DNA of 62,695 nucleotides from IMG/VR virus record IMGVR_UViG_3300020598_000002, positions 1 through 62,695 of that record. One strand, 5' to 3'. Made by a program: the position numbers and the translations under genes. The first letter of the stretch is position 1; every line of letters begins with the position of its first letter. This stretch comes from a virus (Duplodnaviria; Caudoviricetes). Under the pieces are notes generated by a model. That model did no database searches. It was not told the DNA's origin and was given only the letters and a program-made list of their open reading frames with translations. This document shows positions 8,144 to 53,444 of this stretch, in pieces.

Positions 8144-8640
8144 CCCAAGGAAGTACCGTTCTACCGGTCCAGCGAGAAAGGCGGATCGCCGATGCGGTGG
8201 CTGCTTTCCTGCCGGCCTACGACAAGCTCCGGGACGGGGTGATGGAGCGGCGGGCGTCCGACATGCGGGATGGGCTGGCCGCGGTGCGCGCGGTCGACGT
8301 CGCCGGGCTCGAGCGGCTGCTGGCCGATCCGCCGCGCGCCACAGCCGTGGAAATCGCGGAGGCCGCCGGCGTGCTGATCGCCGTGACCAAGCACCTCGAC
8401 AAGACGGACGGCGAGATTTTCCAGCGCACGCTCGTGCAGTTCATCGCGGACGAACAGCCGACGCGGCTCGGGCTGGCGATCGCGATGCGCCGGGTTTTGC
8501 TGGCGGCCAAATTCACCCCGAGCATTGCCGAGGTGATCGAAACGCTGCGCGCCGCGGAATCGGACCTGCGAAGCGCCCGGCAGCGGCTGGAATGGCTCCC
8601 GGATCACGTCAAGGCGGCCGAGGCGTTGCTCAACGGTTAG
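8122..8640 (+). CDS. Replication accessory protein (helicase loader/inhibitor-like)
   Basis: Follows the initiator; KFTPSIAEVIE motif typical of such partners. Confidence 0.55.
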   Translation: MAKSGELTQGSTVLPVQRERRIADAVAAFLPAYDKLRDGVMERRASDMRDGLAAVRAVDVAGLERLLADPPRATAVEIAEAAGVLIAVTKHLDKTDGEIFQRTLVQFIADEQPTRLGLAIAMRRVLLAAKFTPSIAEVIETLRAAESDLRSARQRLEWLPDHVKAAEALLNG

Positions 8641-18690: not shown

Positions 18691-18775
18691 TTGACAGCGC
18701 GGACTCACTCACCCCATAAATCCACCCATTGGCCAGTCCTGTGAGCCCGCCCCGAGAAATCGCGGCGGGTTTTTC
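18691..18775 (+). promoter_or_regulatory. PR'-like late promoter followed by an intrinsic terminator
   Basis: TTGACA 18691-18696, CATAAAT near 18715; hairpin GCCCGCCCCGA-GAAA-TCGCGGCGGGT plus T-run. Confidence 0.6.
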
Positions 18776-18789
18776 ATTGGAGGCTCCGA

Positions 18790-18855
18790 CGGTGACTGCC
18801 CTCCTTGGGCGTTTCCTCCCTAGACTGCCGCCTCGGAAACGGGGCGGCCCTTTCC
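18790..18855 (+). ncRNA. alpha-r8/MmgR (Rfam suhB)-like small RNA
   Basis: CTCCTTGGGCGTTTCCTCCCTAGACT (18801-18826) followed by a GCCGCCTCG-GAAA-CGGGGCGGC hairpin; matches the family signature as I recall it. Confidence 0.7.
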
Positions 18856-18878
18856 CGCTCAACCCATCATCGGCACGA

Positions 18879-19601
18879 ATGGCAAAAAGCGGAAATATAA
18901 AAGGCATTGATTGGCCCGCCGATAAAGTCGAGCGCCGCCCGGTCGATAGCCTCGTCCCCTATGCCCGGAACGCCCGGACGCATTCGGAATCGCAGGTCGC
19001 CCAGATCGCGGCCAGCATCAAGGAATACGGGTTCACCGTCCCGGTCCTGATCGACCCCAAGGGCAACGTCATCGCGGGCCACGGCCGGATCATGGCGGCC
19101 AAGGCGCTGGGCCTGGCCGAAATCCCGGTCATGGTGGCAAAGGGCTGGTCGGCCGCAAAGCGCCGCGCCTATGTCATTCTCGATAACCAGGTCGCGCTCA
19201 ATGCCGGCTGGGACCAAGACCTGCTCAAGCTGGAACTGACGGACCTGCAGGCAGAGGGGTTCGATATCGGCGCGCTCGGGTTCGATGGGCCGCAACTCGC
19301 GGCGGTCATGGACGGCCCGGCGAGCGCCGGCCAATCCGGGGCGGGGTCGCTTTCGGAGAAATTCGGCATCCCGCCATTCTCGGTTCTAAACGCCCGTGAG
19401 GGCTGGTGGCAGGATCGCAAGCGGGCTTGGATCGCGCTGGGCATCCAAAGCGAGCTTGGGCGCGGCGAAAATCTCGCCGAAATGGGCGGGGCTATTGAGC
19501 GCCGCGAGGCCATCAAGCGCAAGACCAATGCGATCCCTGGGGGGCAATGCCGCTTGACCGCGAACGCAGCGCCCGGCGGCATCGCTGATGCCCGCCGCTG
19601 A
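18879..19601 (+). CDS. ParB/Srx-domain protein (N-terminal part of a ParB-methyltransferase locus)
   Basis: LVPYARNARTHS, IAASIKEYGFTVPVLID, IAGHGR, ILDNQ; then FGIPPFSVLNAREGWWQDRKRAW. Confidence 0.85.
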   Translation: MAKSGNIKGIDWPADKVERRPVDSLVPYARNARTHSESQVAQIAASIKEYGFTVPVLIDPKGNVIAGHGRIMAAKALGLAEIPVMVAKGWSAAKRRAYVILDNQVALNAGWDQDLLKLELTDLQAEGFDIGALGFDGPQLAAVMDGPASAGQSGAGSLSEKFGIPPFSVLNAREGWWQDRKRAWIALGIQSELGRGENLAEMGGAIERREAIKRKTNAIPGGQCRLTANAAPGGIADARR

Positions 19602-20420: not shown

Positions 20421-21338
20421 ATGTCCAAGAGCACCATTTCTACCTTCCAGCTTTTTGAGATGTTCCCTGACCAAGAGACCGCGCGATCGTACCTTGAAAG
20501 CCGCCTTTGGCCGGAAGGGCCGAAGTGTCCGGTTTGCGGCCTTGGCGAGCGGATCACGGCACGCGCTGGCGGGTTCTATCGATGTAACCAGTGCAAGGAA
20601 GACTTCACGGTGCGCACCGGCACGATCTTCGAGCGGAGCCACGTTCCCCTGCACAAGTGGATTTACGCGATGTATCTGCTTGTGACGGCCCGCAAAGGCA
20701 TATCCAGCCTGCAACTGTCCAAGCAAATCGGCATTACGCAAAAGTCCGCGTGGTTCGTCCTGCATCGGCTCCGAGAAGCCTGCGGTGACGACCTCACCAA
20801 GCTGCAAGGCATTGTGGAAATCGACGAAACCTATGTCGGCGGAATTGAGAAGAACAAGCACGAGTCCAAAAAGCTCAAGGCGGGTCGCGGCACGGTCGGG
20901 AAGACTGCCGTTGTCGCTATGCGCGAGCGCAAGGGCCGCATGAAGGCGATGGCGGTAGAGGACGCCGATATGGCGACCCTGCATACTAAAATCCACCAGC
21001 ACGTCGTAGTCGGTTCCACCCTGCACACCGATGAGGCTGGCGTTTATCGTGGCCTTGGCGGGCTGTTCTTCAACCACGAAACGGTCAACCACAGCGAAGG
21101 CGAATACGTCCGCGACGGCGTGACCACCAACGGCGTTGAGAGCGTGTTCGCGGTCATGAAGCGTGGTCTGATCGGCGTCTATCACCACGCCAGCAAGAAA
21201 CACCTTGGCCGCTACGTTGACGAGTTTGCCTTCCGCCTGAATGACGGCAACGTGAAGCGTCACACCATGGAGCGGCTGGACAGCTTTGTGGGAGGCACGA
21301 AGGGCAAGCGCTTGACCTACAAGGCTTTGATCCAATGA
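20421..21338 (+). CDS. IS1595-family DDE transposase
   Basis: Zn ribbon CPVC...CNQC, VEIDETYVGG, TDE, VNHS, TTNGVES, KHLGRYVDEFAFRLN. Confidence 0.95.
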   Translation: MSKSTISTFQLFEMFPDQETARSYLESRLWPEGPKCPVCGLGERITARAGGFYRCNQCKEDFTVRTGTIFERSHVPLHKWIYAMYLLVTARKGISSLQLSKQIGITQKSAWFVLHRLREACGDDLTKLQGIVEIDETYVGGIEKNKHESKKLKAGRGTVGKTAVVAMRERKGRMKAMAVEDADMATLHTKIHQHVVVGSTLHTDEAGVYRGLGGLFFNHETVNHSEGEYVRDGVTTNGVESVFAVMKRGLIGVYHHASKKHLGRYVDEFAFRLNDGNVKRHTMERLDSFVGGTKGKRLTYKALIQ

Positions 21339-26479: not shown

Positions 26480-27070
26480 ATGGCTAAGAAGGTCGTATCA
26501 GACCTTGACCGGCTTTTTAAGTCAGTCGAGATCACCATAGACAGTTGTTGGATTTGGACCGGCCCCTTCGATAAGGACGGCTATGCCCGCCAGATGAAGG
26601 TCGGGAGCCGAACAGACAACAGCCGCCGGATGGTCCGCCCGCATCGCTTGGTCTACGAGGCAACCGTAGGGCCGATCCCGGAAGGCTTCACAATCGACCA
26701 CCTGTGCCGCCGCCGCTGTTGCCTTAACCCGGCGCATCTTGAGCCGGTGACGACCCGTGAGAACACACAGCGCGGCTCGCGCAAGAACAAAGCACACTGC
26801 AAGAACGGGCACCCTCTCAGCGGCGACAATCTGTACCTCTACGCCAGCGGCTACCGGGCTTGCAAAACCTGCCGGAACGAATTCGCGAAGCGCCACCGCC
26901 GCAAGACAAACGGTGCCGCACAGCGGAAATATTCCGAAATAAACCGAGAAAAGCGGCGTTTGGAGCAAGCGGCGCGGCGGGCTGCATGGAGCCCGGAACG
27001 CCTGCAGAAAGAGCGTGAACGGTATCGCGCTTATGACGCCAAACGCCGCGCGCGAGGGTCGGGAGGCTAA
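26480..27070 (+). CDS. Free-standing HNH homing endonuclease
   Basis: CWIWTG, HRLVYE, IDHLCRRRCCLNPAHLEPVTTREN, HCKNGH...RACKTC. Confidence 0.92.
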   Translation: MAKKVVSDLDRLFKSVEITIDSCWIWTGPFDKDGYARQMKVGSRTDNSRRMVRPHRLVYEATVGPIPEGFTIDHLCRRRCCLNPAHLEPVTTRENTQRGSRKNKAHCKNGHPLSGDNLYLYASGYRACKTCRNEFAKRHRRKTNGAAQRKYSEINREKRRLEQAARRAAWSPERLQKERERYRAYDAKRRARGSGG

Positions 27071-27071
27071 A

Positions 27072-27854
27072 ATCGGTATTGGTGACAATGTAATCGCGAC
27101 CGGGCTCGCCCGCGGTGCGGCGGCGCGCGGCAAGCGCATCGCGTTCGGTGACGGCAAGCGGATCATCTGGGACCACAACAGCGAGCCGATCTTCCGGGGC
27201 AACCCGAACATCGCGCCGCCCGGATCGGAACGCGACAGCGATATCGAGTGGAATCCGTTCCGCAAGGGAAACCGCCTCTACAACGAACACGACGTCCCCG
27301 GAAACCGCTGGCGCTGGAACATGAACTGGCGCTGCACGCCGGGGGAATTGTTCTTCTCAGGTGAGGAACTGGTCTTTGCCCGGAAGGTCGGTGCCGGCTT
27401 CGTGGTGATCGAGCCGCACATTGAGGCCTGGAAATCCTGCGCCCCGAACAAGCAATGGCCGCGTGATCGATTTGCAGAGGTTGCGCGACGCCTCAAGAAA
27501 GACGGCGCGCGCGTGGTTCAATTTTCGTATCCGAATGCGATGCCGCTTCCTGATGTGGAGAGCATCGCGACTCCATCGTTCCGTCACGCGGCGGCGGTCC
27601 TTGCGAACGCGGCGCTCTATGTTGGTCCTGAAGGCGGCCTGCACCATGCGGCGGCGGCTGTCGGAGTGAAAGGCGTGGTGATCTTCGGCTCGTGGATACC
27701 GCCAGAGGTCACGGGCTACGACATGCATGTGAATATCGGATCGGACACGCGCTATTGCGGGTCGCTTTCGGCTTGTCCGCACTGCCGGCGCGCGCTGGAC
27801 GCGATCACGGTTGAGCAGGTTTACGAGGCCGCGGCCTCGATCTTGGGAGGATGA
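27072..27854 (+). CDS. GT-B glycosyltransferase (GT9-like), apparent ATC start
   Basis: GIGD N-terminus, NKQWP, AAAVLANAALYVGPEGGLHHAAAAVG, VVIFG; GGAGG RBS 5 nt before ATC. Confidence 0.8.
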   Translation: MGIGDNVIATGLARGAAARGKRIAFGDGKRIIWDHNSEPIFRGNPNIAPPGSERDSDIEWNPFRKGNRLYNEHDVPGNRWRWNMNWRCTPGELFFSGEELVFARKVGAGFVVIEPHIEAWKSCAPNKQWPRDRFAEVARRLKKDGARVVQFSYPNAMPLPDVESIATPSFRHAAAVLANAALYVGPEGGLHHAAAAVGVKGVVIFGSWIPPEVTGYDMHVNIGSDTRYCGSLSACPHCRRALDAITVEQVYEAAASILGG

Positions 27855-27855
27855 G

Positions 27856-28092
27856 ATGGAAAAGCTGATCGCGGAACTGAAGGAAGCGCAAGAGGACTAC
27901 GAGAAGGCCATCCAAGCGGAAAGCATCGCGCGGTCGCGGCGCACCGACGCGCTGAACAAGCTGAACCAAGCGCAGCGCGAGGTCGATAAGGCGGTCGAGG
28001 CTCTGAAAAAGATGGCGCCGGGTGACAGTGATTGGAGGCGGGCCGAGCGCACCGGCATGGGAACGTCACCGGTGATTAACCGCGCCGCATGA
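27856..28092 (+). CDS. Small coiled-coil protein
   Basis: Helical, charge-rich 78 aa with GGAGG RBS. Confidence 0.6.
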   Translation: MEKLIAELKEAQEDYEKAIQAESIARSRRTDALNKLNQAQREVDKAVEALKKMAPGDSDWRRAERTGMGTSPVINRAA

Positions 28093-28634
28093 CCGAGCGC
28101 CTTCACCGCCGCGTCGCCGGGCACCACGACATCCGGCTTGACGGCCTGACCGATCTTCTGTTGCGCGCCCCGGGGGCCTCGGTTCTCGACATCGGCTGCA
28201 ATCGCGGCCTGGTCGGCTTCGAGTTCTTCGCCAACGGGGCATCCAAGGTCCACGGCGTCGATATCTATGCCGAGGGGATCGAAACGGCGCGGCACCTGTT
28301 TTGCGATCTGCGGAATTGCGAGTCCCGGTTCGAGGTCCGCGACCTGACCAAGCCGGATGCTCTGGACTGGTGCGACGCGCAATACACCATCGTCGTGATG
28401 CTCGCGACGTATCACAAGCTGAAACGGGTGATGAGCGCGGGCGAGATGAGCGCGCTGATCGGGCGGATCGGGCGGCGGACCGGCAAGTATTTCGCGTGGC
28501 GGGCCACGTCATTCGACCATGCCGCAAATGAGGAAGAAATGCGGGCGCTGGACCGCGATCTGGGTTTGAAGCGCGTCCACACCTCGTATCTCTCGAAAGA
28601 CCTTGGCGTGGCGGCGATCTGGGAGCGGAAGTGA
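28089..28634 (+). CDS. Class I SAM-dependent methyltransferase
   Basis: SVLDIGCNRG, VHGVD. Confidence 0.85.
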   Translation: MTERLHRRVAGHHDIRLDGLTDLLLRAPGASVLDIGCNRGLVGFEFFANGASKVHGVDIYAEGIETARHLFCDLRNCESRFEVRDLTKPDALDWCDAQYTIVVMLATYHKLKRVMSAGEMSALIGRIGRRTGKYFAWRATSFDHAANEEEMRALDRDLGLKRVHTSYLSKDLGVAAIWERK

Positions 28635-28897
28635 TGGCCTCCGTGCGGACTCTCAGCATTCGTTTCGAGGCGGACTTAATCTCAGATGCCGCTCGCGACA
28701 TGGAGATGATCTGGCGTGCTCTGCCAAAGTGTCACGGCGAGAAGTATCGGGATTTCGAGCGCCGGTTCGAGGAATCGTGCCGGATCGCGTCCTTCGATCC
28801 GGGCATAGAGCGCCTTGACGATGCGTGGTTCATCGTGACCCCGCCGGCCGCTTTTCAGTCGATGATCGCGGAAGCGCGGGCGCTTGGGATCATCTGA
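28631..28897 (+). CDS. Hypothetical protein
   Basis: Coupled 88-aa ORF. Confidence 0.55.
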   Translation: MMASVRTLSIRFEADLISDAARDMEMIWRALPKCHGEKYRDFERRFEESCRIASFDPGIERLDDAWFIVTPPAAFQSMIAEARALGII

Positions 28898-29437
28898 ATG
28901 AAACTCCTGCAGCGCGAGGAAGAGTTCGCCTGGTTCGTCGCGCTGTTGCAGCGCGAGGGCGTGCGCTCCTATCTCGAAATCGGGTCGAAGTTCGGCGCGT
29001 CGCTGGACCGCATCGCGCGGTCAATGCCGAAGGGGTCGAAGGTTGTTTCGGTTGACCTGCCCGGGGAAGCCGACTCCAAAACCTCGCTGGTCAACGTCGT
29101 GACGAACCTGTCCCGTGACGGCTACGACGTCCACATGGTCTGGGGCGACAGCACCTCGGAACGCACCGTCGCCATGGTGAAGCAACACGGGCCGTTCGAT
29201 GCCGTGTTCATCGATGCGAACCACACGCTGCCCTACGTCACCAAGGACTGGGAGAATTACGGCCCGATGGGGCGCATCGTGGCGTTCCACGACATCGCCT
29301 ACCGGCCGAAGCCGAACAAGCCTCCGAAGCCGATCGAAGTCGACAAGCTCTGGAACGTGATCAAGGGCGGATATCGGCACGAGGAATGCTGCCTCGACGG
29401 GCCGTTCAACGGGATCGGTGTGCTGTGGCGCGAATAA
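28898..29437 (+). CDS. Methyltransf_24-like (sugar O-methyltransferase-type) enzyme
   Basis: YLEIGSKFGAS, GDS, FDAVFIDANH, AFHD. Confidence 0.85.
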   Translation: MKLLQREEEFAWFVALLQREGVRSYLEIGSKFGASLDRIARSMPKGSKVVSVDLPGEADSKTSLVNVVTNLSRDGYDVHMVWGDSTSERTVAMVKQHGPFDAVFIDANHTLPYVTKDWENYGPMGRIVAFHDIAYRPKPNKPPKPIEVDKLWNVIKGGYRHEECCLDGPFNGIGVLWRE

Positions 29438-29615
29438 GCGAGGGTTTCTACTGGGTTCGTGACCGCCGGTCTGGCGAGCTCACGGTCGCCGAGATTGAAC
29501 TGGGGCGCGAAACTCCCGCCGGGAACGTCATGCGGATCATCGGTGATGAACGATGGTTCTATGAAGATCGCCGATTATGTCCGTTCGACGTGATTTCGAA
29601 GATCGAAAAGCCCCG

Positions 29616-30278
29616 ATGCTGACCGTCCTGACGTGGTGGTGGGGCCAGAAATACGGCCCCGAATACGTCTACCGGCTCAAGGCGGGGCTGGAACGCCACC
29701 TGAAACAGCCGCATCGTTTCCTCTGCGTCACGGATCGCGAACTCGAAGGCGTTGAGACGACCCCGATCAAAGACCCCGGCCTGACCAAGCATCCGGGCTG
29801 CATCGTCCGCCTTCGCATCTTCGATGAGGTCTGGCAGCGCGACATCGGCGCCACCGACCGCATCGTCTGCATGGATCTGGACTCAATCGTCACCGGGCCG
29901 CTCGATCCGCTATTCGACCGCGAGGAGCCTTTCATCATCCTGCAGGGCGTCAATTCACCGACGCACCCGTGTCCGTACAACGGATCGATATTCATGCTGA
30001 GGGCCGGCTACCGGCCGGACGTGTGGGACGATTTCACGCTCGAAAAGCTGGACCGGATTCCCCGGCTCGAGTTTCCAGATGACCAAGGCTGGATGCACGC
30101 CATGATCCCGGATGCGGCGGCGTATCGCTCCGCCGATGGCGTCTATGCGTTTCAGAAGCTGGGATGGCCGGGCGGCGATGTTCCGCCGCTTGATGCGCGC
30201 CTCGTGGCGTTTCCGGGACGGCGCGATCCGGCGCAGTTCACGCATCTGAAGTGGGTGCGTGAGCACTGGCGGGAATAA
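29616..30278 (+). CDS. GT-A glycosyltransferase-like protein
   Basis: KYGPEYVYRL, HRFLCVTD, MDLD (DxD), YNGSIF, DDQGW. Confidence 0.75.
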   Translation: MLTVLTWWWGQKYGPEYVYRLKAGLERHLKQPHRFLCVTDRELEGVETTPIKDPGLTKHPGCIVRLRIFDEVWQRDIGATDRIVCMDLDSIVTGPLDPLFDREEPFIILQGVNSPTHPCPYNGSIFMLRAGYRPDVWDDFTLEKLDRIPRLEFPDDQGWMHAMIPDAAAYRSADGVYAFQKLGWPGGDVPPLDARLVAFPGRRDPAQFTHLKWVREHWRE

Positions 30279-30307
30279 TTTCAGGAATTTTTTGCGCAGG
30301 TTTTGTC

Positions 30308-31105
30308 GTGATCGACCCCGGCCAAGTCTGCCTGTTCATCCCGGCTGGATTGCGCGCCTTCAAGCTCGACCTGTTCAACCGGATCGGAACGCATATCAAG
30401 GCCGCCGGCGGCGGTGTGATCGAGCACGATGCGCAGGCGCTGGATCGGCTCCCGCGCGACGTGATCCCGATAGTCGGTTGCCAGCCGGAATCGACCGCGC
30501 TGATCGCGAAATGGCGGAGCGAAGGCCGCCCGTGGATTTATTGGGATCGCGGCTATGCCCGGCGCGTCTTTGCAACCTGGCTGCCGCGCGGACAGGACGG
30601 CGGCTATTACCGATGGCATGTCGGCAGTTTCCAAGCTCAATCGATCCGGCCCGTGCCGAATGATCGATGGAAGGCTCTGAACGTCCCGGTCGAAAAGTGG
30701 AAGGTGGGCGGTCGGCACATCGTCATCGCGGCGCCGACCCGGACCTATGCTCGCTTCCACTGCTGCGAAAGCTGGATTGCTGACACGATAGACGCGCTGG
30801 CGCGGGTGACGGATCGGCAATTGGTTATCCGCGACAAGGAGTCGAAACGGTCGCTGCAATCCGACCTGCACGGCGCGCACGCGCTCGTAACGCACGGCAG
30901 CATCGCCGCGGTCGAGGCCGTGATCCTCGGCTATCCGGTGTTCGTTCACCCCGATAGTGCGGCGTCTCTGGTCGGCCGGACGGACCTGAAGAAAATCGAG
31001 AGCCCGGTCTATCCCGATCGGCAACCCTGGCTGAACGCGCTGGCCTATTCGCAGTTCAACGAGACGGAATTGATCGACGGCACGCTATGGCGCTTGCTCA
31101 ACTAG
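30308..31105 (+). CDS. GT-B-like protein (capsule biosynthesis KpsC/KpsS-like C-terminus)
   Basis: YWDRGY, LVIRDK, ALVTHGSIAAVEAVILGYPV. Confidence 0.65.
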   Translation: MIDPGQVCLFIPAGLRAFKLDLFNRIGTHIKAAGGGVIEHDAQALDRLPRDVIPIVGCQPESTALIAKWRSEGRPWIYWDRGYARRVFATWLPRGQDGGYYRWHVGSFQAQSIRPVPNDRWKALNVPVEKWKVGGRHIVIAAPTRTYARFHCCESWIADTIDALARVTDRQLVIRDKESKRSLQSDLHGAHALVTHGSIAAVEAVILGYPVFVHPDSAASLVGRTDLKKIESPVYPDRQPWLNALAYSQFNETELIDGTLWRLLN

Positions 31106-31692
31106 GACTCGTCATCGGCTGCGCAGAGGGCAATTTCGACGAGGCCCGCGCCGCGATCGCGCTGCAGAAACCGGACCTGATCTATTGCGTGAAGCTGGCC
31201 GGGGTGCATTGGCCTGAGCCTTTCGACTGGTGGGTCGGCCTGCATCCCGAATGGATGACAGGGTACATGCAGCAGCGCGCCGCGCTGGGCCATCCCCGAG
31301 GGTTCCGCACCGCGACGTGCCTTGAGAAAGAACTGGACCCGAGAAAGAAGGACGACACGTTCGAGCCCGACCGGCGCGTCTCGTATCGCTGGCCTGGCAT
31401 GAACTCCTCGGCTTCGTCAGGGATCTTCGCCGCAAAGGTCGCGCTCGAGGATTGCGAGCGGGTCATCCTCGCCGGCGTCCCGATGACGAAGAGCAAGCAT
31501 TTCACGCGCGGCCGGGAATGGTCGCTACTGGACTCGTTTCTCGTGGGGTTGAAGGAATCGATCCCGCACATGACAGGCCGTGTCCGTTCCATGAGCGGCC
31601 GCACGGCAGAGCTTCTGGGTCGTCCTGACCCGAAATGGCTGAGCGAGGTCCGCAATGTCGGTGACATGGGACGAGTCCAAACACCCGCGTGA
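31087..31692 (+). CDS. Putative glycosyltransferase-like protein (Maf/DUF115-like Rossmann fold)
   Basis: LVIGCA, SSGIFAAKVAL...RVILAGVPM pattern. Confidence 0.5.
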   Translation: MALAQLGLVIGCAEGNFDEARAAIALQKPDLIYCVKLAGVHWPEPFDWWVGLHPEWMTGYMQQRAALGHPRGFRTATCLEKELDPRKKDDTFEPDRRVSYRWPGMNSSASSGIFAAKVALEDCERVILAGVPMTKSKHFTRGREWSLLDSFLVGLKESIPHMTGRVRSMSGRTAELLGRPDPKWLSEVRNVGDMGRVQTPA

Positions 31693-32077
31693 CAAGATTG
31701 GCCGCTGGACCGCGGCCGGTGGCGAGGCGTCAGGCGATCAGGCTCAGAGCCCGGACGAATACAGCGACGAGGATCAGGCCAAGCACCGCGCCGCGATGTC
31801 AAAGATCGCTGCGGCGCGCGACACGATCAACGACGCCGCCGAACAGATCAAGGCGAAGATGGCCGAACTGGCCCAGCTTCAGAAGACCCTCGAAAAGCAA
31901 GTCGCGGCGATCGAAGCGGCGCATGAGAAGGTTGCCGAAATCGCGGACGAATACGGGCTCGACTACGAGACGGCGGACGATGACTTCAACTCCGCCGCGT
32001 CGGACCTCGCGTCCGAAATCGAAAACACGCTCGATTCCCTCAAGGAATCGCACAAGCAATTGAAGAAACACGCATAG
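31655..32077 (+). CDS. Acidic coiled-coil protein with N-terminal WDESKHPRDxxGRW motif; candidate internal head protein
   Basis: Motif as seen in MuF-associated phage head proteins. Confidence 0.6.
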   Translation: MSVTWDESKHPRDKIGRWTAAGGEASGDQAQSPDEYSDEDQAKHRAAMSKIAAARDTINDAAEQIKAKMAELAQLQKTLEKQVAAIEAAHEKVAEIADEYGLDYETADDDFNSAASDLASEIENTLDSLKESHKQLKKHA

Positions 32078-32146
32078 CCATGCCCGTCTTCAAGGCGCGG
32101 GCCAGGCTGTCGCGAAAGCCGCGGCATGAGCCGGGGCCGTCATTGA

Positions 32147-32243
32147 CCGGCAGGACGCCGGCCGAACCTCGGGCGGGGACCGCCCATCATCAAACGTCGA
32201 ATTCTGGCGAGACGCCAGGGACGCCACAACAGCGAGAGGCTGT
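32147..32243 (+). promoter_or_regulatory. Four RRGAS-loop hairpins in the scaffold gene leader
   Basis: CCGGC-AGGAC-GCCGG, GGGCG-GGGAC-CGCCC, CTGGC-GAGAC-GCCAG, ACAGC-GAGAG-GCTGT; the last covers the RBS. Confidence 0.65.
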
Positions 32244-32244
32244 A

Positions 32245-33006
32245 ATGCTGCTCAAACTGAAAATCGATGCGCTCGAATCCGTGGATGAAGCGTTCCGCCC
32301 GCTCTACGAAAAGGATGGCGACGCCTTCAAGCTCAAGGTCGAAGGCGTCGAGGATACGTCCGCTCTGAAGGGCGCCCTCGACAAGGAGCGCAAGGCCCGC
32401 GCCGACCTCGAAAAGAAGGTCAAGCGGTGGGAATCGCTCGGCAAGTCCGACGAAGAAATTGCCGAATTGCTCAAGGCGACCGAGGAGGCCGAGCGCAAGA
32501 AGGCCGAAGCCGACGGCGACCACCAGAAAATCCTGAAGCAGCTCCAGGACAAGTGGGCCAAGGAAAAGGCGGACCTGGAGGCCGAACTGACCGCCGCCCG
32601 TTCTTCGGAGCGCGGCGCGATCATCGGAACCAGCGTCATGTCGGCGCTGACGAAGGCGGGCGCGACCGAAGAGGGCATCGACCTTCTCCCGGATCGTCTC
32701 GCCGGGCGCATCAAGTACGAAACCGAGGACGGCAAGCGCGTCCTCAAGATCATGCAGGCCGATGGCGAGACGCCGATGGCCGGCAGCGGGAAAGACGGCA
32801 CCGCAACCTTTGACGATCTGGTCAAGGAAGCCGTCGCGAAATGGCCCTCGCTGTTCAAGGGGGCAAACCAATCGGGCGGCGGGAAGCAGCCTGACAACGC
32901 CGGGGGAGCCGGCGCGAAGAAGAAGTCCGATTTCAAATCCGAGAAGGACCGTGCGGCGTGGGTCGAGAAAAACGGCTTCGACGCATACAAGGCCCTGCCG
33001 GACTGA
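32245..33006 (+). CDS. Capsid scaffolding protein
   Basis: LYEKDGDAFKLKVEG, LKGALDKER coiled coil, SGGG tail, ends YKALPD; directly before the capsid gene. Confidence 0.85.
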   Translation: MLLKLKIDALESVDEAFRPLYEKDGDAFKLKVEGVEDTSALKGALDKERKARADLEKKVKRWESLGKSDEEIAELLKATEEAERKKAEADGDHQKILKQLQDKWAKEKADLEAELTAARSSERGAIIGTSVMSALTKAGATEEGIDLLPDRLAGRIKYETEDGKRVLKIMQADGETPMAGSGKDGTATFDDLVKEAVAKWPSLFKGANQSGGGKQPDNAGGAGAKKKSDFKSEKDRAAWVEKNGFDAYKALPD

Positions 33007-33044: not shown

Positions 33045-34034
33045 GTGGCCGATTATCTCGCATCAAACTTCAAGGTCTATCAGGAGTACCTGAAGACCCG
33101 CGCCGCGGAGACGCTGCAGCAGAACGCGGACGTGTTCAACGCTGCCGTCAACAACGGCATCATCCTTCGCACGGTCGAAAAGCCGGGCGACTACGAATAC
33201 GAGTCCTTCTTCAAGGACATCGCGAACCTGATCTCGCGGCGTGACAATACGTCCACCGCCTCGGCGGCGAAGCTGTCGATGGCGCAGGAAGAGTTCGTCC
33301 GCGTCAAGCTGAACCGCAAGATCGGTCCCGTGGACCAGTCGCGCGACTCGTTCCGCAAGGTGTTTGCCCGGTATTCGGAGATGGAGTTCTCCGGCATTCT
33401 GGGCGGGCAGATCGCGGTTGCGCAGCAGCTCGACATGCTCAACTCGGTCCTGCTCGCGGCCGGCGCGGCGCTTGCCAACGTCTCCGGCGGGGCGCTCAAG
33501 CACACCGTCGCGTCTGGCGGCACCATCACCACGCCGTCCCTCGTGGACGGCCTGTCCAAGATGGGCGACCGTTCCGACCGCGTGGTGTGCTGGGTCATGC
33601 ACTCCAAGGTCTACTTCGACCTTGTGAAGGAGCAGATCGCGGCGAATATCGACGGCTTGTCGGTGTTCAACGTGCGCACCGGCACTCCCGTCACGCTCAA
33701 CCGCCCGGTGATCGTCACCGACTCCCCCAGCCTCGTGAAGAAAATCGTCTCGCCGGACGTGAACGACTACTACACGCTTGGCCTGGTGTCGGGCGGTGCG
33801 CTGGCCGAGGTGACGGAAACCTCGGACATCGTGATCGATGACGTCACCGGCCTCGAAGTGCTGATGACCCGCCTGCAGGGCGAGTTCGCGTACAACATCG
33901 GCCTGAAGGGCTTCAAGTACGCGACCGGCAACGGCATCAACCCGAACGACACGGTGATCGGAACCGGCGCGACCTGGGACAAGGCGGCGACTGACGACAA
34001 GTCGCTCGCTGGCGTGGTGATCCAGAGCCGCTAA
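33045..34034 (+). CDS. Major capsid protein
   Basis: 329 aa; FNAAVNNGIIL, KMGDRSDRVVCWVMHSKVYFDL, RPVIVTDSPSL, LKGFKY. Confidence 0.9.
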   Translation: MADYLASNFKVYQEYLKTRAAETLQQNADVFNAAVNNGIILRTVEKPGDYEYESFFKDIANLISRRDNTSTASAAKLSMAQEEFVRVKLNRKIGPVDQSRDSFRKVFARYSEMEFSGILGGQIAVAQQLDMLNSVLLAAGAALANVSGGALKHTVASGGTITTPSLVDGLSKMGDRSDRVVCWVMHSKVYFDLVKEQIAANIDGLSVFNVRTGTPVTLNRPVIVTDSPSLVKKIVSPDVNDYYTLGLVSGGALAEVTETSDIVIDDVTGLEVLMTRLQGEFAYNIGLKGFKYATGNGINPNDTVIGTGATWDKAATDDKSLAGVVIQSR

Positions 34035-34041
34035 CGAAAAC

Positions 34042-34080
34042 GGCGCGGCGGGGCCATCCTCGCCGCGCCTTCGCATTTTC
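34042..34080 (+). terminator. Possible terminator after the capsid gene
   Basis: GGCGCGGCGGGG/CCTCGCCGCGCC stem then TTCGCATTTT. Confidence 0.45.
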
Positions 34081-34091
34081 GCGGAGGCATC

Positions 34092-34343
34092 GTGTCCGAG
34101 ACAATCATTTACGAGCCGCATCCGGTTTCGCCTGAGAGGGTGGAGGAATTGCGCGCGCAAGGCTTCACCATCATCGACGCGATCTACGATCCGAACCGAT
34201 GGGCGAAGAATCCCGCGCCAGCCGCCGACGAATACCGGCAGATCGCGGCCAGCCTTTCGCCCGAACCGTTTGCGCGGGAGCCCGCGCCGATCAAGCGCGC
34301 CCCCGGCCGCCCCCGCAAGGAGCCAGTGACCGATGGCGCTTGA
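34092..34343 (+). CDS. Small head-associated hypothetical protein
   Basis: IIYEPHPVSPERVEELRAQGFTIIDA; GGAGG RBS. Confidence 0.7.
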   Translation: MSETIIYEPHPVSPERVEELRAQGFTIIDAIYDPNRWAKNPAPAADEYRQIAASLSPEPFAREPAPIKRAPGRPRKEPVTDGA

Positions 34344-34854
34344 GGTTGAGGACGGCACCGGGAAATCCGGCGCGGAAAGCTATGTCAGTGTTGCGGATGC
34401 CGCGTCGTATTGCGACGCGCGCGGCCTGATGTTCTCGACCGGCGAGACTGTGGCCAAGGAAGCCGCGTTGCGTCGGGCCACGACGGCCATTGACGCGCTC
34501 TACGGCTCCCGCTTCCCGGGCGCGCGGCTGAACGGTAGGGCTCAGGCCCTGCAATGGCCCCGCACCGATGCTTATGATGCCGATGGCGAGGAAATCGCAT
34601 CGAGCGAAATCCCCGACGAGGTGATCAAGGCGACCTGTGAATTCGCCGTGCGTGAATTGGCCGAGCCGGGATCGACCATGCCGGACCTTGAACGGGGCGG
34701 GGCGATCCGCGCGCTTCGGGCCGGTTCGGTCTCGATCGAATACGCCGGCAACGCCACGGCGCGCACCGTCTATTCCATCGTGGATGGGATTCTCGCCACG
34801 CTGCTCAAGGCGCGTGACATGGCATCGTTCCAGGCTGAGGCGTCGCGCGGGTAA
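34333..34854 (+). CDS. Head-tail adaptor (DnaT-like annotated family)
   Basis: MALEVEDGTG..AESYVSVADA, QALQWPR, IPDEVIKATCE, GSVSIEY. Confidence 0.85.
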   Translation: MALEVEDGTGKSGAESYVSVADAASYCDARGLMFSTGETVAKEAALRRATTAIDALYGSRFPGARLNGRAQALQWPRTDAYDADGEEIASSEIPDEVIKATCEFAVRELAEPGSTMPDLERGGAIRALRAGSVSIEYAGNATARTVYSIVDGILATLLKARDMASFQAEASRG

Positions 34855-34889
34855 AAGCAAAACCCCTCCGGGGTTAGCCGGAGGGGTTT
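34855..34889 (-). terminator. Intrinsic terminator of the repeat RNA
   Basis: 12-bp perfect stem AAACCCCTCCGG/CCGGAGGGGTTT (34860-34889), 6-nt loop, TTTTGCTTTT tail on the minus strand. Confidence 0.85.
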
Positions 34890-34953
34890 CATAGCCGGGC
34901 CACGCCGCGCCGCGCCGGATCGGGTCTCACCAAACCGGGGCTCGCCAAGAGCC
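34855..34953 (-). ncRNA. GGY-NN pentamer-repeat small RNA (candidate gapped-code guide RNA)
   Basis: 11 in-phase pentamers at 34894-34948 between a minus-strand promoter and a terminator; NN series matches codon positions 1-2 at 35109-35126. Confidence 0.75.
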
Positions 34954-34958
34954 AAAGA

Positions 34959-34986
34959 AGAATACGGCAACGCGGTTGCATTTCAA
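34959..34986 (-). promoter_or_regulatory. Sigma70-like promoter of the repeat RNA
   Basis: Minus strand TTGAAA (34986-34981), 16 nt, TATTCT (34964-34959). Confidence 0.65.
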
Positions 34987-34997
34987 AGGGATTTTGG

Positions 34998-35360
34998 ATG
35001 GCTTCGCCCCTCGAAGGATCGCTTGCGAGGCAAGTCGGGTCCGCGTTCCAATCGCTGTTTATGGCGGCGACGTTGACCCGGGACGTTATCCCGGATTCGC
35101 CAAGCTACGATCCTTTCGACCCGCCAAGCCCAATCCCTGTCGAATACCCGTGCAGGGCCATCGTGGAAGCCTACGCGGACAAATTCCGGCTCGAGGGGCT
35201 GGTCGCGGCCAACGAGCGCAAGGTGCTGATCCTCGCCACGAGCCTTTCGGTTCGGCCGCAGCCGCAGGACAGGGTGACGATCCGCGGCATCACGTTCACG
35301 ATCAATGATGTGAAGACGGACCCGGCCGAAGCGGTCTTCGAGTGTAAGGGGGCCATGTGA
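34998..35360 (+). CDS. Head-closure/neck protein
   Basis: 120 aa after the adaptor; YDPFDP...YPCRAIV, ERKVLILA, PQPQDRV, DPAEAV. Confidence 0.75.
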   Translation: MASPLEGSLARQVGSAFQSLFMAATLTRDVIPDSPSYDPFDPPSPIPVEYPCRAIVEAYADKFRLEGLVAANERKVLILATSLSVRPQPQDRVTIRGITFTINDVKTDPAEAVFECKGAM

Positions 35361-35581
35361 GCGCCGAGATCGTCAAATTCGAGCCGGTCGAAATTGGTGA
35401 GGCATATCGGTTTGAGCCAGACACCATTCTCGACGAAGCGAAAGGGAAGCCCTTCGCCAAGATGGCGGTGATCGGTCAACTCGAAGACGGTACGCTCTGG
35501 GTCACCGGAAACGCCAATGCGGGCGAGACGATGATCCTGATGGAGCGGATCAAACATAGCTTGATATTCCCGGACGACTGA
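35357..35581 (+). CDS. Hypothetical protein
   Basis: Coupled 74-aa ORF. Confidence 0.6.
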   Translation: MSAEIVKFEPVEIGEAYRFEPDTILDEAKGKPFAKMAVIGQLEDGTLWVTGNANAGETMILMERIKHSLIFPDD

Positions 35582-36591
35582 TGGCAGCCAACCGTTGGGA
35601 CCAACTGATCGACCAATGGGACGCCACGCTCCGCAAGGCGTTTCTGGACTCGGTCTACCGGCTCCGGGATCAGGCGCAGCTCGATGCCATCTCGCGCGCG
35701 CTGGAGCGAGGGGACGTAAACGGCGCGCTCCGGGCCGTGGGGCTTGACCCGGCATCGTTCCGGGCATGGGACAAGACATTTGAGGCGGCGTTCGAGGCTG
35801 GAGGAACGGCGACGGTTTCTGCGCTCCCGGTGCTTCGCGACGCCGCAGGGTATCGGCTCGTGGTGCAATTCAACATCCGCAACCCACAGGCCGAGGCATG
35901 GCTGCGCAATCACTCCTCAACACTGGTCCGGGAAATTCTGGACGATCAGCGGGACATGATCCGAACTCATCTCGCGAACGGGATGGCCCGCGGCGTCAAC
36001 CCGCGCACCTCCGCGCTGGATCTTGTGGGCCGGATTGGCGCAACAGGCCGGCGTGAGGGCGGAGTGATCGGGCTGACATCATCGCAGGCCGAATGGGTGC
36101 GCCGCTACGAGGCAGAACTGGCCAGTGATGCGCCTGGCGCGGCTCTGGCAAGGGAATTGAGGGACAGGCGGTTTGACGCCGCTGTGCGCCGCGCTGCGGA
36201 CGCTGGCGAGCCAGTTCCGGCCTCTATCCGGGCCAAGATGGTGACGGCCTATAGGAACCGGGCCCTGCGCTTCCGTGCCGAGGCGCTGGCTCGAACCGAA
36301 GCGATGGCCGCGCTTCACACCGCACAAGACGAAGCGATCAATCAGGCCGTGTCGGCCGGCGCGATCGATCAGACCGCAGTCACGTTCGCGTGGCGCACCG
36401 CGCGCGACAAGCGGGTCAGGGACTCGCACAAGGCGATGGAAGGCCAGACCAGACCGATGGGCGTGCCGTTCCGGTCAGGCTCGGGGGCGATGCTGCGCTA
36501 TCCGGGCGATCCATCCGCTCCGGCGTCCGAGCGGATCAACTGCCGCTGCTGGCGCGAGCCGGTCGTGGATTTCTTGGCGAACGTGGCGTGA
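35581..36591 (+). CDS. MuF-like minor head protein
   Basis: RAEALARTEA, WRTARDKRVRDSH, LRYPGDP, ERINCRC. Confidence 0.9.
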   Translation: MAANRWDQLIDQWDATLRKAFLDSVYRLRDQAQLDAISRALERGDVNGALRAVGLDPASFRAWDKTFEAAFEAGGTATVSALPVLRDAAGYRLVVQFNIRNPQAEAWLRNHSSTLVREILDDQRDMIRTHLANGMARGVNPRTSALDLVGRIGATGRREGGVIGLTSSQAEWVRRYEAELASDAPGAALARELRDRRFDAAVRRAADAGEPVPASIRAKMVTAYRNRALRFRAEALARTEAMAALHTAQDEAINQAVSAGAIDQTAVTFAWRTARDKRVRDSHKAMEGQTRPMGVPFRSGSGAMLRYPGDPSAPASERINCRCWREPVVDFLANVA

Positions 36592-38766: not shown

Positions 38767-40982
38767 CGATCGCCGAACTTGGGTTCAAAATCGACAGCGG
38801 CCCGGCCGCTGCCGCATCGCGCGAACTCGACAAACTCCGCGCGTCCGCAAAGGGCGTGGAGGATCAATACAAGAAGGTCGAACGCGCCGCCGCGATGGGC
38901 GGGCAGAGCCAACGCGGCTATTCGCAGGCCCTGCAGCAAGCTTATGGCATCCAGGAAAAGCTCACCGCGTCGCAGGTCAAGGCGATCCGCGCACTTGAGA
39001 CCCAGATCGCCAAGACCGAATTGCTGAACGCCGGGCAGAAGCGCGAGGCCGCGCAACTCGTCGCGCTGCGTCAGGCCGGCACCACGGCAAACACCGCCTA
39101 TGGCCGCACCGTCGCGGGCCTCGCCGGTCAGCTTTATGATCTTGAGCAGGCGCAGAACAAGACGGATCGGTCTGCCGGGAATCTCGCGAACACGCTGACC
39201 AAGAGGTTCATTACTGGATTCCTCGTCCTCCAACTGAAGGAAGCGGCGCGCGCCGTTCTCAATCTCAACACCGAACTCGCCAAGGTCGGAGACACCGCGC
39301 AGCGCACCGGCATCAACTCGGGGAATTTGCAGGGCTTCCAATTCGCCGCGCAGGTGAAGGGGAATAACCCGGCCGAATTCCTCGACACGATGCTCAAATT
39401 CAACCGAGAGGTCGGGGAGGCGCAGCGCGGTCTTGGTTCGCTGGCCACGCTTTTCCGCGCCAATGGTTTGGCGGCCAAGGACACCGAGGACGCATTCCTT
39501 AAGGTCGCTGATCTGGTTCGGAATTCCAGAACCGAGGCGGACAAGTTCTCGATCCTCCAGCAAGCCGGGCTCCCCGCCACGCGGGAAATGGTCAAGCTGA
39601 TGGAGCAGGGCGCGGATGCGATCCGGCGACAGGCCGCTGAGGCGAGCAAGATCCCGGATGCCGAAATCGAACTGGCGCGCAGGCGAGATGAGCAATTCGC
39701 GGCGCTCGTGGCGCGTCTGGAGAAGTACGGCAAGCAGGCCGCACTCGCATTCTTCGACCCGGAGGTTTGGAAGCAGGCCGCGGTTGCTGCGCTTCCGATG
39801 GGGCTCGGCCGACTGTGGCAGGGTGCGGCAGGCTTGGCGCCATCGCTCCCGGCATTTGGGGGGACTCCGCCGGCGCAAGAGCGGATCCACGACCGCAATC
39901 TCGGGGCCCTCCCGCCTCTCCCGGCCACCGCCAGCGGGCAGAACAAGCCGACCGTAGACCCCGAGGTCATCCAGCGCCTCAACGCGCTTGAACAACAGCG
40001 GACCACCCTTCTGGGCCAGACCGCTACCGTTGGTGATCAGGTCCGCGCCGTCGAAATCCAGATCGCTCAGGCCCGGATGCAGGGCGTCAACATCACAAAG
40101 GCGGAGGCCGAAAACCTGACCCGCCTTGCCCGTGAACGCGCGCTCGGAATCGACCAGATCAAGGCGCAGGCCGACGCGTACCGGATCGAAGCTGAGACGA
40201 TCGGCATGTCCACGGGACAGGCCGTCGCCTATCGCGCCGAACAGGAGCGCATCAACGAGGCCAAGCGCAACGGCGTCCCGCTGACGCACGAGAATATCGA
40301 GGCGATCCGGCGTGAAGCCGAGGCAATGGGTCAAGCCGCCCAACGCGCAGAGGATTTGCGCTTTGCCCATGACACGATGCGCGGCGTGTTCATGGACTTC
40401 GGTCGCGCGATCCGCAACGGAGCCAGTGCATGGGAGGCGTTCCGAGAGGCCGGAGCGAATGCGCTGAACAAGATCGCCGACAAGCTGATGCAGATGGCCG
40501 CTGATAATCTGTGGGCCGCAGCGTTCGGCGGGGCGGGCGGCGGTGGCGGCCTTGGCATATTCGGGTCGCTTTTCGGCGCTTCGGGCGGCGCGCCAGCCAT
40601 TGGCGTGGTGGGGGCTGCCGGTGGCATGGCAGTGCCGACGTTCTTTGCGTCCGGTGGCTACACAGGACCAGGTGGGAAATACGAGCCGGCCGGCGTCGTT
40701 CACCGCGACGAATTTGTGCTGCGACAGGAAGCGGTAAAGCGCATCGGCGTCCCGCGCCTCAACGCCATGAATCGTGGCTATGCAGAAGGCGGGCTGGTCG
40801 GTTCGATGCGCCCGGCGAGCAACGACAACAGCATGTCGATCTCCATTCCGGTCTCAATCTCTGGCGGAGATATCGACGCCGAGAAAACCGCGAAGATGAT
40901 CAAGGCCGCACTGCGCAGTCCCGAGATGGATGCGCGGATCACGGATTCGGTGCGGAAGGCGAAGCAGAGGCGCGCGCTTTGA
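38763..40982 (+). CDS. Tape measure protein
   Basis: 739 aa, Ala/Gln-rich helical, MTIAELGFKIDS start, FASGGYTGPGGKYEPAGVVHRDEFV. Confidence 0.92.
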   Translation: MTIAELGFKIDSGPAAAASRELDKLRASAKGVEDQYKKVERAAAMGGQSQRGYSQALQQAYGIQEKLTASQVKAIRALETQIAKTELLNAGQKREAAQLVALRQAGTTANTAYGRTVAGLAGQLYDLEQAQNKTDRSAGNLANTLTKRFITGFLVLQLKEAARAVLNLNTELAKVGDTAQRTGINSGNLQGFQFAAQVKGNNPAEFLDTMLKFNREVGEAQRGLGSLATLFRANGLAAKDTEDAFLKVADLVRNSRTEADKFSILQQAGLPATREMVKLMEQGADAIRRQAAEASKIPDAEIELARRRDEQFAALVARLEKYGKQAALAFFDPEVWKQAAVAALPMGLGRLWQGAAGLAPSLPAFGGTPPAQERIHDRNLGALPPLPATASGQNKPTVDPEVIQRLNALEQQRTTLLGQTATVGDQVRAVEIQIAQARMQGVNITKAEAENLTRLARERALGIDQIKAQADAYRIEAETIGMSTGQAVAYRAEQERINEAKRNGVPLTHENIEAIRREAEAMGQAAQRAEDLRFAHDTMRGVFMDFGRAIRNGASAWEAFREAGANALNKIADKLMQMAADNLWAAAFGGAGGGGGLGIFGSLFGASGGAPAIGVVGAAGGMAVPTFFASGGYTGPGGKYEPAGVVHRDEFVLRQEAVKRIGVPRLNAMNRGYAEGGLVGSMRPASNDNSMSISIPVSISGGDIDAEKTAKMIKAALRSPEMDARITDSVRKAKQRRAL

Positions 40983-52929: not shown

Positions 52930-53444
52930 CCCAGATCAACGTCCAGTTCGTCTATGGCGCCGGCAATGACATGCTGTTCGGCGGCGGCCTGCGGGATCTT
53001 CAATCCGCTGTAAAGGCAAAGTTCGGCACCAAAGTCTATTCCCCCCGCATCATCGACTACACCGAATATGAAACGCTCCTGCGTCTTCTGCGACAGTGGA
53101 ACGATCCGACTATTCTTGTCGGTCATTCTTGTGGCTGCAATGCTGTCACTCACGCCGCTGTTGCTCTGTCTATGGAGCGCGTCCCGTATCTGCTGGCTAT
53201 TGCGCCATCGATCTATTGCCCCGTCGCGGCCCTTCCGCCGAATGTGGGCCGCGCAACGCAGGCGACGAGCAATCCGTTCGATTTCTTCAATCCTTTCGGC
53301 CGGACGCTTCTCCGCACGAGTTCGGTGAACAACAAGACCAAGCTGGATGTCATCAACACCGGCCTGCCGCACCTGACCGCGCCGTACCACGCGGCGGTGA
53401 AAAAGCGACTCCTCGAGGAAATCGATGTCGCGCTGACTGCTTAG
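52926..53444 (+). CDS. Small alpha/beta hydrolase
   Basis: Nucleophile elbow LVGHSCG, C-terminal His (LPHL); coupled to the endolysin. Confidence 0.7.
   Translation: MTQINVQFVYGAGNDMLFGGGLRDLQSAVKAKFGTKVYSPRIIDYTEYETLLRLLRQWNDPTILVGHSCGCNAVTHAAVALSMERVPYLLAIAPSIYCPVAALPPNVGRATQATSNPFDFFNPFGRTLLRTSSVNNKTKLDVINTGLPHLTAPYHAAVKKRLLEEIDVALTA

Follow-up and report, generated by a model that had tools for sequence, protein, structure and literature searches.

A candidate solo VIPR-type guide RNA gene beside its own near-target in the head operon of an alphaproteobacterial prophage

The closest described relatives of the locus reported here are the VIPR systems. Their central protein, Vipr, is RAMP-like and works with guide RNAs of about 100 nt, the vrRNAs, in which 9-16 YNNGG units are followed by a structured 3' tail. 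The variable dinucleotides (NN) are read against the target under a 1-nt skip rule, the skipped bases are mostly at wobble positions, either DNA strand is targeted and the natural targets are in competing phages (10.64898/2026.04.26.720920). According to the structure preprint one Vipr per repeat grips the GGY triplet and presents NN (10.64898/2026.04.26.720927). Solo vrRNAs are reported from satellites and from 346 VIPR-null phages, and their self-match scores are below their rival scores (10.64898/2026.10.15.759431). A fourth VIPR preprint notes non-canonical triplets in some arrays. Here we analysed IMG/VR record IMGVR_UViG_3300020598_000002 over its whole length of 62,695 nucleotides, referred to as the window. 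This 62.7-kb stretch is a prophage, and its left end carries a tRNA and an integrase. Between its genes for a head-tail adaptor (Ad1) and a head-closure protein (Hc1) lies an insert of 143 nt. We consider it probable that this insert encodes, as a complete gene unit without a vipr of its own, a guide RNA of the VIPR type, i.e. a candidate solo vrRNA aimed at the Hc1 gene of sibling phages. As a sequence-level candidate it is well supported. The original prediction, made from the bare letters of the window, had pointed to a likeness to VIPR. This link is real: three preprints of 2026 report GGY/NN vrRNAs, the 1-nt skip rule, wobble skips and solo vrRNAs.

The locus is like the solo vrRNAs of SUSP1-family VIPR-null phages and F5 satellites, as these are described in 10.64898/2026.10.15.759431, in that a lone GGY/NN array with a 3' tail resides on a mobile element without vipr or vap. 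The predicted action is likewise via the Vipr of another element, and the self score is below the rival score. However, the tail of the insert is a plain terminator hairpin, whereas theirs is a conserved 40-nt pseudoknot tail. The host clade here is represented by a Pseudorhodoplanes metagenome-assembled genome (MAG; Alphaproteobacteria). Their targets are given as vipr, satellites, other vrRNAs or unassignable sequences, whereas here the predicted target is a virion structural gene of siblings. Further, the guide adjoins the carrier's own mismatched allele, and it sits on a 143-nt insert in the head operon, whereas theirs came about by vipr-vap1 deletion (10.64898/2026.10.15.759431). With complete VIPR systems, as far as these are set out in 10.64898/2026.04.26.720920 and 10.64898/2026.04.26.720927, the unit shares a pentamer number within 9-16, a length of about 100 nt, the skip rule with wobble skips, targeting of either DNA strand, targets in rival phages and the lack of a self match of at least 80%. 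It differs from them by the lack of a Vipr or vap gene and by three of its 11 units, which are G-N-Y, not GGY.

No VIPR-positive element sharing this tail was found in the viral contig collection or in the genomes of the order and family. Because the tail differs and no cognate Vipr is known, membership in the described solo-vrRNA family is not established. The missing shared tail lowers the claim of family membership, not the claim that the RNA may work in the manner of a vrRNA. What would be new is the clade of the host, a tail that is a plain terminator, a target in a structural gene of near-identical rivals and the position of the guide beside its own putative immune allele. The satellite preprint (10.64898/2026.10.15.759431), as far as its text goes, has no case of a guide beside an immune allele, and the main texts of the VIPR preprints have neither the structural-gene target nor the layout; their supplementary target lists may differ.

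The minus-strand unit between Ad1 and Hc1

The gap between the two genes holds a promoter, a pentamer array and a terminator on the minus strand, with exactly the sequence that the original prediction had given (Table 1). On the minus strand, from 34948 to 34892, the array reads TT-GGC-GA-GCC-CC-GGT-TT-GGT-GA-GAC-CC-GAT-CC-GGC-GC-GGC-GC-GGC-GT-GGC-CC-GGC-TA. Each of the 11 triplets has the form G-N-Y, and the dinucleotides give the NN string (TT) GA CC TT GA CC CC GC GC GT CC (TA). When positions 33900-36000 were scanned for the promoter consensus on both strands, TTGAAA-16-TATTCT was the sole promoter-like site (mean of shuffles 0.4). With the start placed by this promoter, an RNA of about 95 nt is predicted. 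The predicted intrinsic terminator of the minus strand overlaps the adaptor stop codon; on the plus strand the stem is followed only by TTT. Owing to the hairpin, the complete unit has a folding energy of -52 kcal/mol (z -2.34). The pentamer array alone folds no better than its shuffles (z +0.89).

The array caller and the scoring scheme were taken from 10.64898/2026.10.15.759431, where the minimum for a call is given as four in-phase GGY+NN units. The array is the best period-5 GGY tract of the window, with 8/11 GGY compared to 6/11 for the next best elsewhere. First-order Markov surrogates of the window (n = 200) peaked at 4-7 GGY and 7-9 GNY of 11; the combination of 8 GGY and 11 GNY did not occur in any of them. 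A part of the tract is a simple GCGGC repeat, yet the phase continues through GGT-TT-GGT-GA. We conclude that the pentamer periodicity is real and beyond chance. Phage SUSP1 (NC_028808.2) served as a positive control: its four decoded arrays had 11/11, 13/15, 10/14 and 5/6 GGY. Thus, 8/11 is within the range of real guides, and degenerate units are frequent inside published vrRNAs. Vipr-adjacent arrays from the same bacterial order as the host also contain GCC, GAC, GCT and GTT units.

Other period-5 tracts were rejected as chance occurrences. In the window these are located within coding sequence at 39777-39836 (plus strand) and at about 53353-53395 (minus strand). In the host MAG one such tract (contig C19) is within a histidine-kinase open reading frame (ORF), and the GGY period-5 pattern is no commoner there than in a reversed control (24+29 vs 41+41). 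A short tract just past the guide terminator, antisense in the adaptor gene at 34658-34687 (minus strand), reads GGTCC GGCAT GGTCG ATCCC GGCTC GGCCA. It has 5/6 GGY and 12 informative bases, and it was treated as chance.

Table 1. Coordinates of the insert, its predicted parts, the flanking genes and the near-target of the carrier
Feature	Position	Strand	Basis or remark
Insert, 143 nt, between the Ad1 and Hc1 genes, holding a whole small transcription unit	34855..34997		Bounded by the gene ends
Predicted sigma-70-like promoter TTGAAA-16-TATTCT	34959..34986	-	9/12 consensus matches; predicted start near 34952
Candidate guide array, 11 in-phase pentamers (G-N-Y + NN)	34892..34948	-	8 GGY; the other three are GCC, GAC, GAT
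3' tail: 2-nt linker TG, 12-bp GC-rich hairpin (34889-34860), 6-nt loop, U-run TGCTTTT	34853..34891	-	Terminator-like in scan
Carrier's near-target, Hc1 codons 37-47, YDPFDPPSPIP	35106..35137	+	17/22 under the 1-nt skip rule
Head-tail adaptor gene Ad1, 173 amino acids, upstream neighbour	34333..34854	+	phrog_477, E 8.9e-48; Pfam DnaT_2, E 5.4e-47
Head-closure gene Hc1, 120 amino acids, proposed immune allele	34998..35360	+	phrog_161, E 2.7e-10; PF05354, E 1.8e-5

The unit is an insert which is absent from relatives. This had been anticipated by the original prediction and agrees with two lines of data. First, Ad1 and Hc1 abut in 30 of the 35 relatives' loci that have both genes (approximate gap -16 to +7; the set was not dereplicated), and in L006 and L007 the stop of the adaptor gene overlaps the following start. 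Second, Logan contigs of relatives from compost and wastewater join across the insertion site. They are about 151 and 144 nt shorter: in the contig from run X4 291 window letters are skipped with 140 in between, in that from run X5 357 are skipped with 213 in between. This deficit is about the size of the 143-nt gap. None of the contigs from runs X3-X6 spans 34855-35039, so that they are informative only where they join across the site. Cargo is found repeatedly at the Ad1/Hc1 junction: the remaining five loci (L054, L055, L065, L074, L083) have unrelated inserts there, about 240-630 nt long, which contain small ORFs in either orientation and no pentamer array. Near the adaptor and Hc1 homologues no pentamer array was detected in loci L002-L021, and the later loci contained a single 5-of-7 tract (L072). 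When 401 genomes of the family were searched with the insert by BLAST, it was matched in full only by its own copy in the host MAG; the remaining matches were 19-60 nt long and within the GC-repeat part. An exact-pattern scan of the viral contig collection for the tail hairpin had no matches.

Phage morons are promoter-gene-terminator inserts in late operons. The 143-nt unit is like a moron in having its own promoter and terminator, in its location between two late genes that abut in relatives and in being transcribed, by prediction, against the operon. Its cargo differs, as it is a non-coding guide-like RNA and not a protein gene.

Match of the guide to head-closure alleles

The original prediction started from a gapped match of the NN string to the carrier's own Hc1. 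This match is real: at 17/22 it is the best in the window under the 1-nt skip rule (runner-up 16/22), and it is in frame with Hc1 codons 37-47, each skipped base being a third codon position. Rules with 0 or 2 skipped bases each reached up to 16. The significance attached to the match at first, 4^-12 per site, was an overstatement. Somewhere in the window 17 or more was reached by 60 of 500 base-shuffled and by 83 of 500 unit-shuffled guides, and a run of six exact units occurred in 36 of 300 unit shuffles. With 12-17% of shuffled guides reaching 17/22, the self match was discarded as stand-alone evidence. Its only odd feature is its closeness to the array.

Sibling proteins gave a different result. 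Among 69 candidates 62 Hc1 homologues had E<=0.001. Proteins were scored directly, with the first two codon bases fixed for F, D, E, P, A, V, Y, I and T, and ambiguous for L, S and R. The nine closest cluster representatives are 74-87% identical to the carrier Hc1, and eight of them scored above self (18-21 vs 17 of 22). A natural allele which fits the guide better than self was what the original prediction had staked itself on in advance, and such alleles exist. P0003 (FDPFDPPAPVP) scored 21/22, as did P0185, P0186 and P0187, further cluster members with the same peptide, of which P0187 is on five contigs. P0008 (YDPLDPPAAVP) reached 20-21/22; P0001 and P0004 (both YDPFDPPAPVP) and P0007 reached 20/22; P0002 and P0006 had 19/22 and P0005 18-19/22. 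P0009, with 16/22, was the sole closest representative below self. Of the 53 more distant homologues 52 scored 16 or less, P0010 had 18 and none reached 19. As a null, shuffled guides were scored on these 62 proteins. The best score of a guide was 13-19 for 300 unit shuffles, with 19 reached once, and 12-17 for 300 base shuffles; 0 of 600 exceeded 19. The predicted guide match is thus allele-specific for sibling Hc1.

This did not depend on how the array is read. The siblings score 21/22 in the YNNGG reading (95%), 19/22 in the GGYNN reading (86%) and 21/24 with all 12 dinucleotides (87.5%). Self scores 17/22 (77%), 16/22 (73%) and 17/24 (71%), respectively. In every reading the siblings are above, and self is below, the 80% NN-match line of the VIPR preprints.

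The carrier mismatches are in guide units 1, 8, 9 and 10. Those in units 8-10 are at the 3' end, where the original prediction had placed the mismatches that would spare self. In a 13-sequence Hc1 clade the carrier has six unique residues, two of which, S44 (AGC) and I46 (ATC), are within guide units 8 and 10. A44S requires two base changes (AGC vs GCN), and at I46 the comparison is ATC vs GTN. Each of the five self mismatches is repaired in some natural allele, while no single allele repairs all five. The exact allele that had been predicted, (F/L)(D/E)P(F/L)(D/E)PPAAVP, was not present in the homologue set, and neither its 22-base code pattern nor a degenerate pattern covering the sibling alleles had a match in the viral contig collection.

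When DNA was scored in place of protein, the homologous site had 19/22 in the Hc1 homologue from a same-family genome (G448) and 18/22 in an IMG/VR relative. Sites with three mismatches or less numbered two in G448, one of which is the Hc1 site (control 1), and zero in the host MAG (reversed control 1). Therefore, 19/22 is near the genome-wide background and 21/22 is far beyond it.

Proposed action, partner protein and competing explanations

How might such a unit work? From its own promoter a minus-strand RNA of about 95 nt would be made, consisting of a short leader, the 11 GNY-NN pentamers and the terminator hairpin as a tail. Vipr would be supplied in trans by a co-infecting or co-resident VIPR-positive element, would polymerise on GGY and display NN, and the Vipr-RNA filament would follow the published 1-nt skip rule in binding to double-stranded DNA. 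As the NN string has the sequence of the coding strand, the pairing partner of the RNA would be the template strand of the DNA, as in the published R-loop model, and not mRNA. The target would be codons 37-47 of the sibling head-closure gene, [F/Y]DP[F/L]DPPA[P/A]VP, matched at 20-21/22, and a filament bound there may keep the late operon of the rival from being transcribed. The carrier would be spared because its allele, at a distance of 160 bp from the guide, has A44S and V46I and scores below 80%. Possibly, and we suggest this tentatively, guide and immune allele form a linked poison-antidote pair: a block of about 300 bp which disables sibling late operons if Vipr is present. It might spread by recombination because a recipient sibling gains the weapon and the immunity together.

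A Vipr was searched for in the prophage and in the host genome. The same element as in the window is also found in a Pseudorhodoplanes MAG (G001; locus L001 on contig C365), which is incomplete at 4.4 Mb. Two profiles were used, A2 with 29 type II Viprs and A3 with four alphaproteobacterial Viprs recovered here. Pfam and PHROGs assigned ordinary phage functions to most other ORFs (Pfam covered 59 of the 69 ORFs of at least 70 amino acids, namely those outside 26480-33003; PHROGs covered 17 ORFs). No vipr is recognisable in the prophage or the host MAG when searched for by sequence, not by structure. The same order was sampled with 401 genomes, of which six had Vipr homologues, each with adjoining GGY arrays; two of the six (G135, G174) are present again in the family sample. 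None of 18 guides from the six genomes scored above the maximum of its own 30 shuffles in the window.

Four loci of this order (L087-L090, in G332, G135, G048 and G026) share a conserved Vipr subfamily of about 220 amino acids with 67-82% mutual identity. Long staggered GGC/GGT arrays are located downstream of Vipr and end in an intrinsic terminator. The candidate guide is like the arrays of L087 and L088 in its GC-rich GGC/GGT units with GCC, GAC, GTT and GCT as the exceptions in those loci, and in its layout, as the last units lead almost directly into an A-rich, GC-hairpin and U-run terminator. The tails have no sequence similarity. Whereas those are multi-guide staggered arrays downstream of a Vipr gene, the insert has one guide, its own promoter and no protein gene.

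Several points weigh against a solo vrRNA aimed at siblings. Some concern the partner. At E<=10 both Vipr profiles were without a match in either the prophage or the host MAG, hhalign of 12 ORFs without a family against Vipr gave probabilities below 1%, and the G-loop motif G-x-G-[DE]-[WYF]-R was absent in all six frames. Vipr-positive genomes are rare in the clade (6/401). Others concern the RNA. Three of the 11 units break GGY at position 2, and the structure preprint, as far as it goes into this, describes specific G2 contacts and a loss of silencing if GGY is perturbed (10.64898/2026.04.26.720927). The plain terminator hairpin is unlike the type II pseudoknot tail. Homologous vrRNAs keep GGY while NN is hypervariable, and within a VIPR clade they share an invariant structured tail; no array homologous to the candidate guide was found in the relatives' loci, by its tail in the viral contig collection, or in the 401 genomes of the family. 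The sole contig from an RNA run (X6, a soil metatranscriptome) is 151 nt long, identical to the adaptor part at 34680-34830 and confined to the adaptor gene, off the array; it may reflect expression or carried-over DNA. Finally, the target side has its weaknesses. A 22/22 allele was not found among the Hc1 homologues, for the best alleles only the proteins are available, taken from Logan assemblies, and the enrichment of self-unique residues in the target is weak (2/6 in 11/120 codons; binomial estimate about 0.1).

The failure to find a partner bears on two alternatives. A divergent Vipr might be hidden in the prophage or the host, and the RNA would then belong to a VIPR system that is split yet needs no outside partner. 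Similarity among RAMPs is low at the sequence level, and it was structure that led to the discovery of Vipr (10.64898/2026.04.26.720920). The prophage has ORFs without a family, e.g. 6488-7030, 8122-8637 and 55261-55677, and the incompleteness of the host MAG leaves room for such a gene. Against this stand the uniformly negative profile, hhalign and G-loop searches, and the unassigned ORFs do not have a glycine-rich loop near the C-terminus. Also, the host MAG lacks another credible array, its best other tract being the one in the histidine-kinase gene. We regard a hidden Vipr as unlikely. Alternatively, the unit might be a relic or a passenger, i.e. a guide captured by recombination from a VIPR-positive rival which is still recognisable but out of use. 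The partner missing from prophage and host MAG, the three degenerate units and the position at a recurrent cargo site would all suit this explanation. However, neither the promoter nor the phase of the array nor the terminator is disrupted in the 143 nt, extant sibling alleles are still matched at 20-21/22, and arrays adjoining vipr genes are equally or more degenerate. A unit out of use is, in our view, distinctly unlikely.

The RNA could also act chiefly as a decoy that titrates the Vipr of an invader, with the spelled site being secondary. Solo vrRNAs which neutralise the VIPR of a helper phage are indeed described in 10.64898/2026.10.15.759431. In the same preprint, as far as described, a solo vrRNA without a REP (decoy-site) target served as a control and plaquing was unhindered. 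Moreover, the candidate guide fits one specific gene of close relatives far beyond its shuffles, and we hold a function as a mere sponge to be very unlikely.

Last, the insert might be unrelated to VIPR: a small RNA, a terminator-bearing moron or a peptide gene, with periodicity and allele match being coincidental. A 30-amino-acid ORF with a hydrophobic stretch (34889-34981, minus strand) does overlap the array, and the GCGGC repeat and the insignificant self match would also suit this alternative. This ORF lacks a Shine-Dalgarno sequence and its ATG is upstream of the predicted -10 box; therefore, the predicted transcript would not contain that ATG. No Rfam family reached the gathering threshold in the insert. 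The NN string is mRNA-sense, and plain antisense pairing with the Hc1 mRNA is therefore impossible at that site. With neither the periodicity in 200 surrogates nor a score above 19/22 in 600 shuffled guides, we consider such a coincidence very unlikely.

Setting and significance

The 120-amino-acid frame of Hc1 is backed by its 62 homologues, whereas the public annotation of the MAG (P0184) has a 65-amino-acid C-terminal piece only. Its PF05354 match of 25.7 bits is slightly below the 26-bit cut-off. When the region 33045-36591 was compared with the phage collection by blastn, a single 90-nt match in the major head gene was returned. Elsewhere in the window a suhB/mmgR match (Rfam RF00519, 47.6 bits, gathering level) at 18791-18863 (plus strand) overlaps the start of an ORF for a ParB N-terminal domain (18729-19598). 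A transposase of the IS1595 family (DDE_Tnp_IS1595, E 1.7e-46) is located at 20421-21335 (plus strand), between a DNA methylase gene and the terminase region.

VIPR became known as recently as 2026, and the solo guides reported to date are from phages and satellites of Enterobacteriaceae. If the candidate guide is what we take it to be, solo guides would extend to a temperate alphaproteobacterial phage. A new class of targets would be added, the head-completion gene of near-identical rivals, and this might constitute an allele-specific warfare among siblings which is directed at a virion structural gene. With this layout the discrimination of self from non-self can be read off the sequence, from the guide, the carrier's mismatched allele at 160 bp and the sibling alleles at 20-21/22. 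One 143-nt insert and two 32-bp sites make up a compact, testable system. It could be used to ask which number and position of mismatches give protection against VIPR binding, and if a guide can work with a foreign Vipr. Searching for guides beside their own near-targets can reveal orphan guides for which no protein is available as an anchor.

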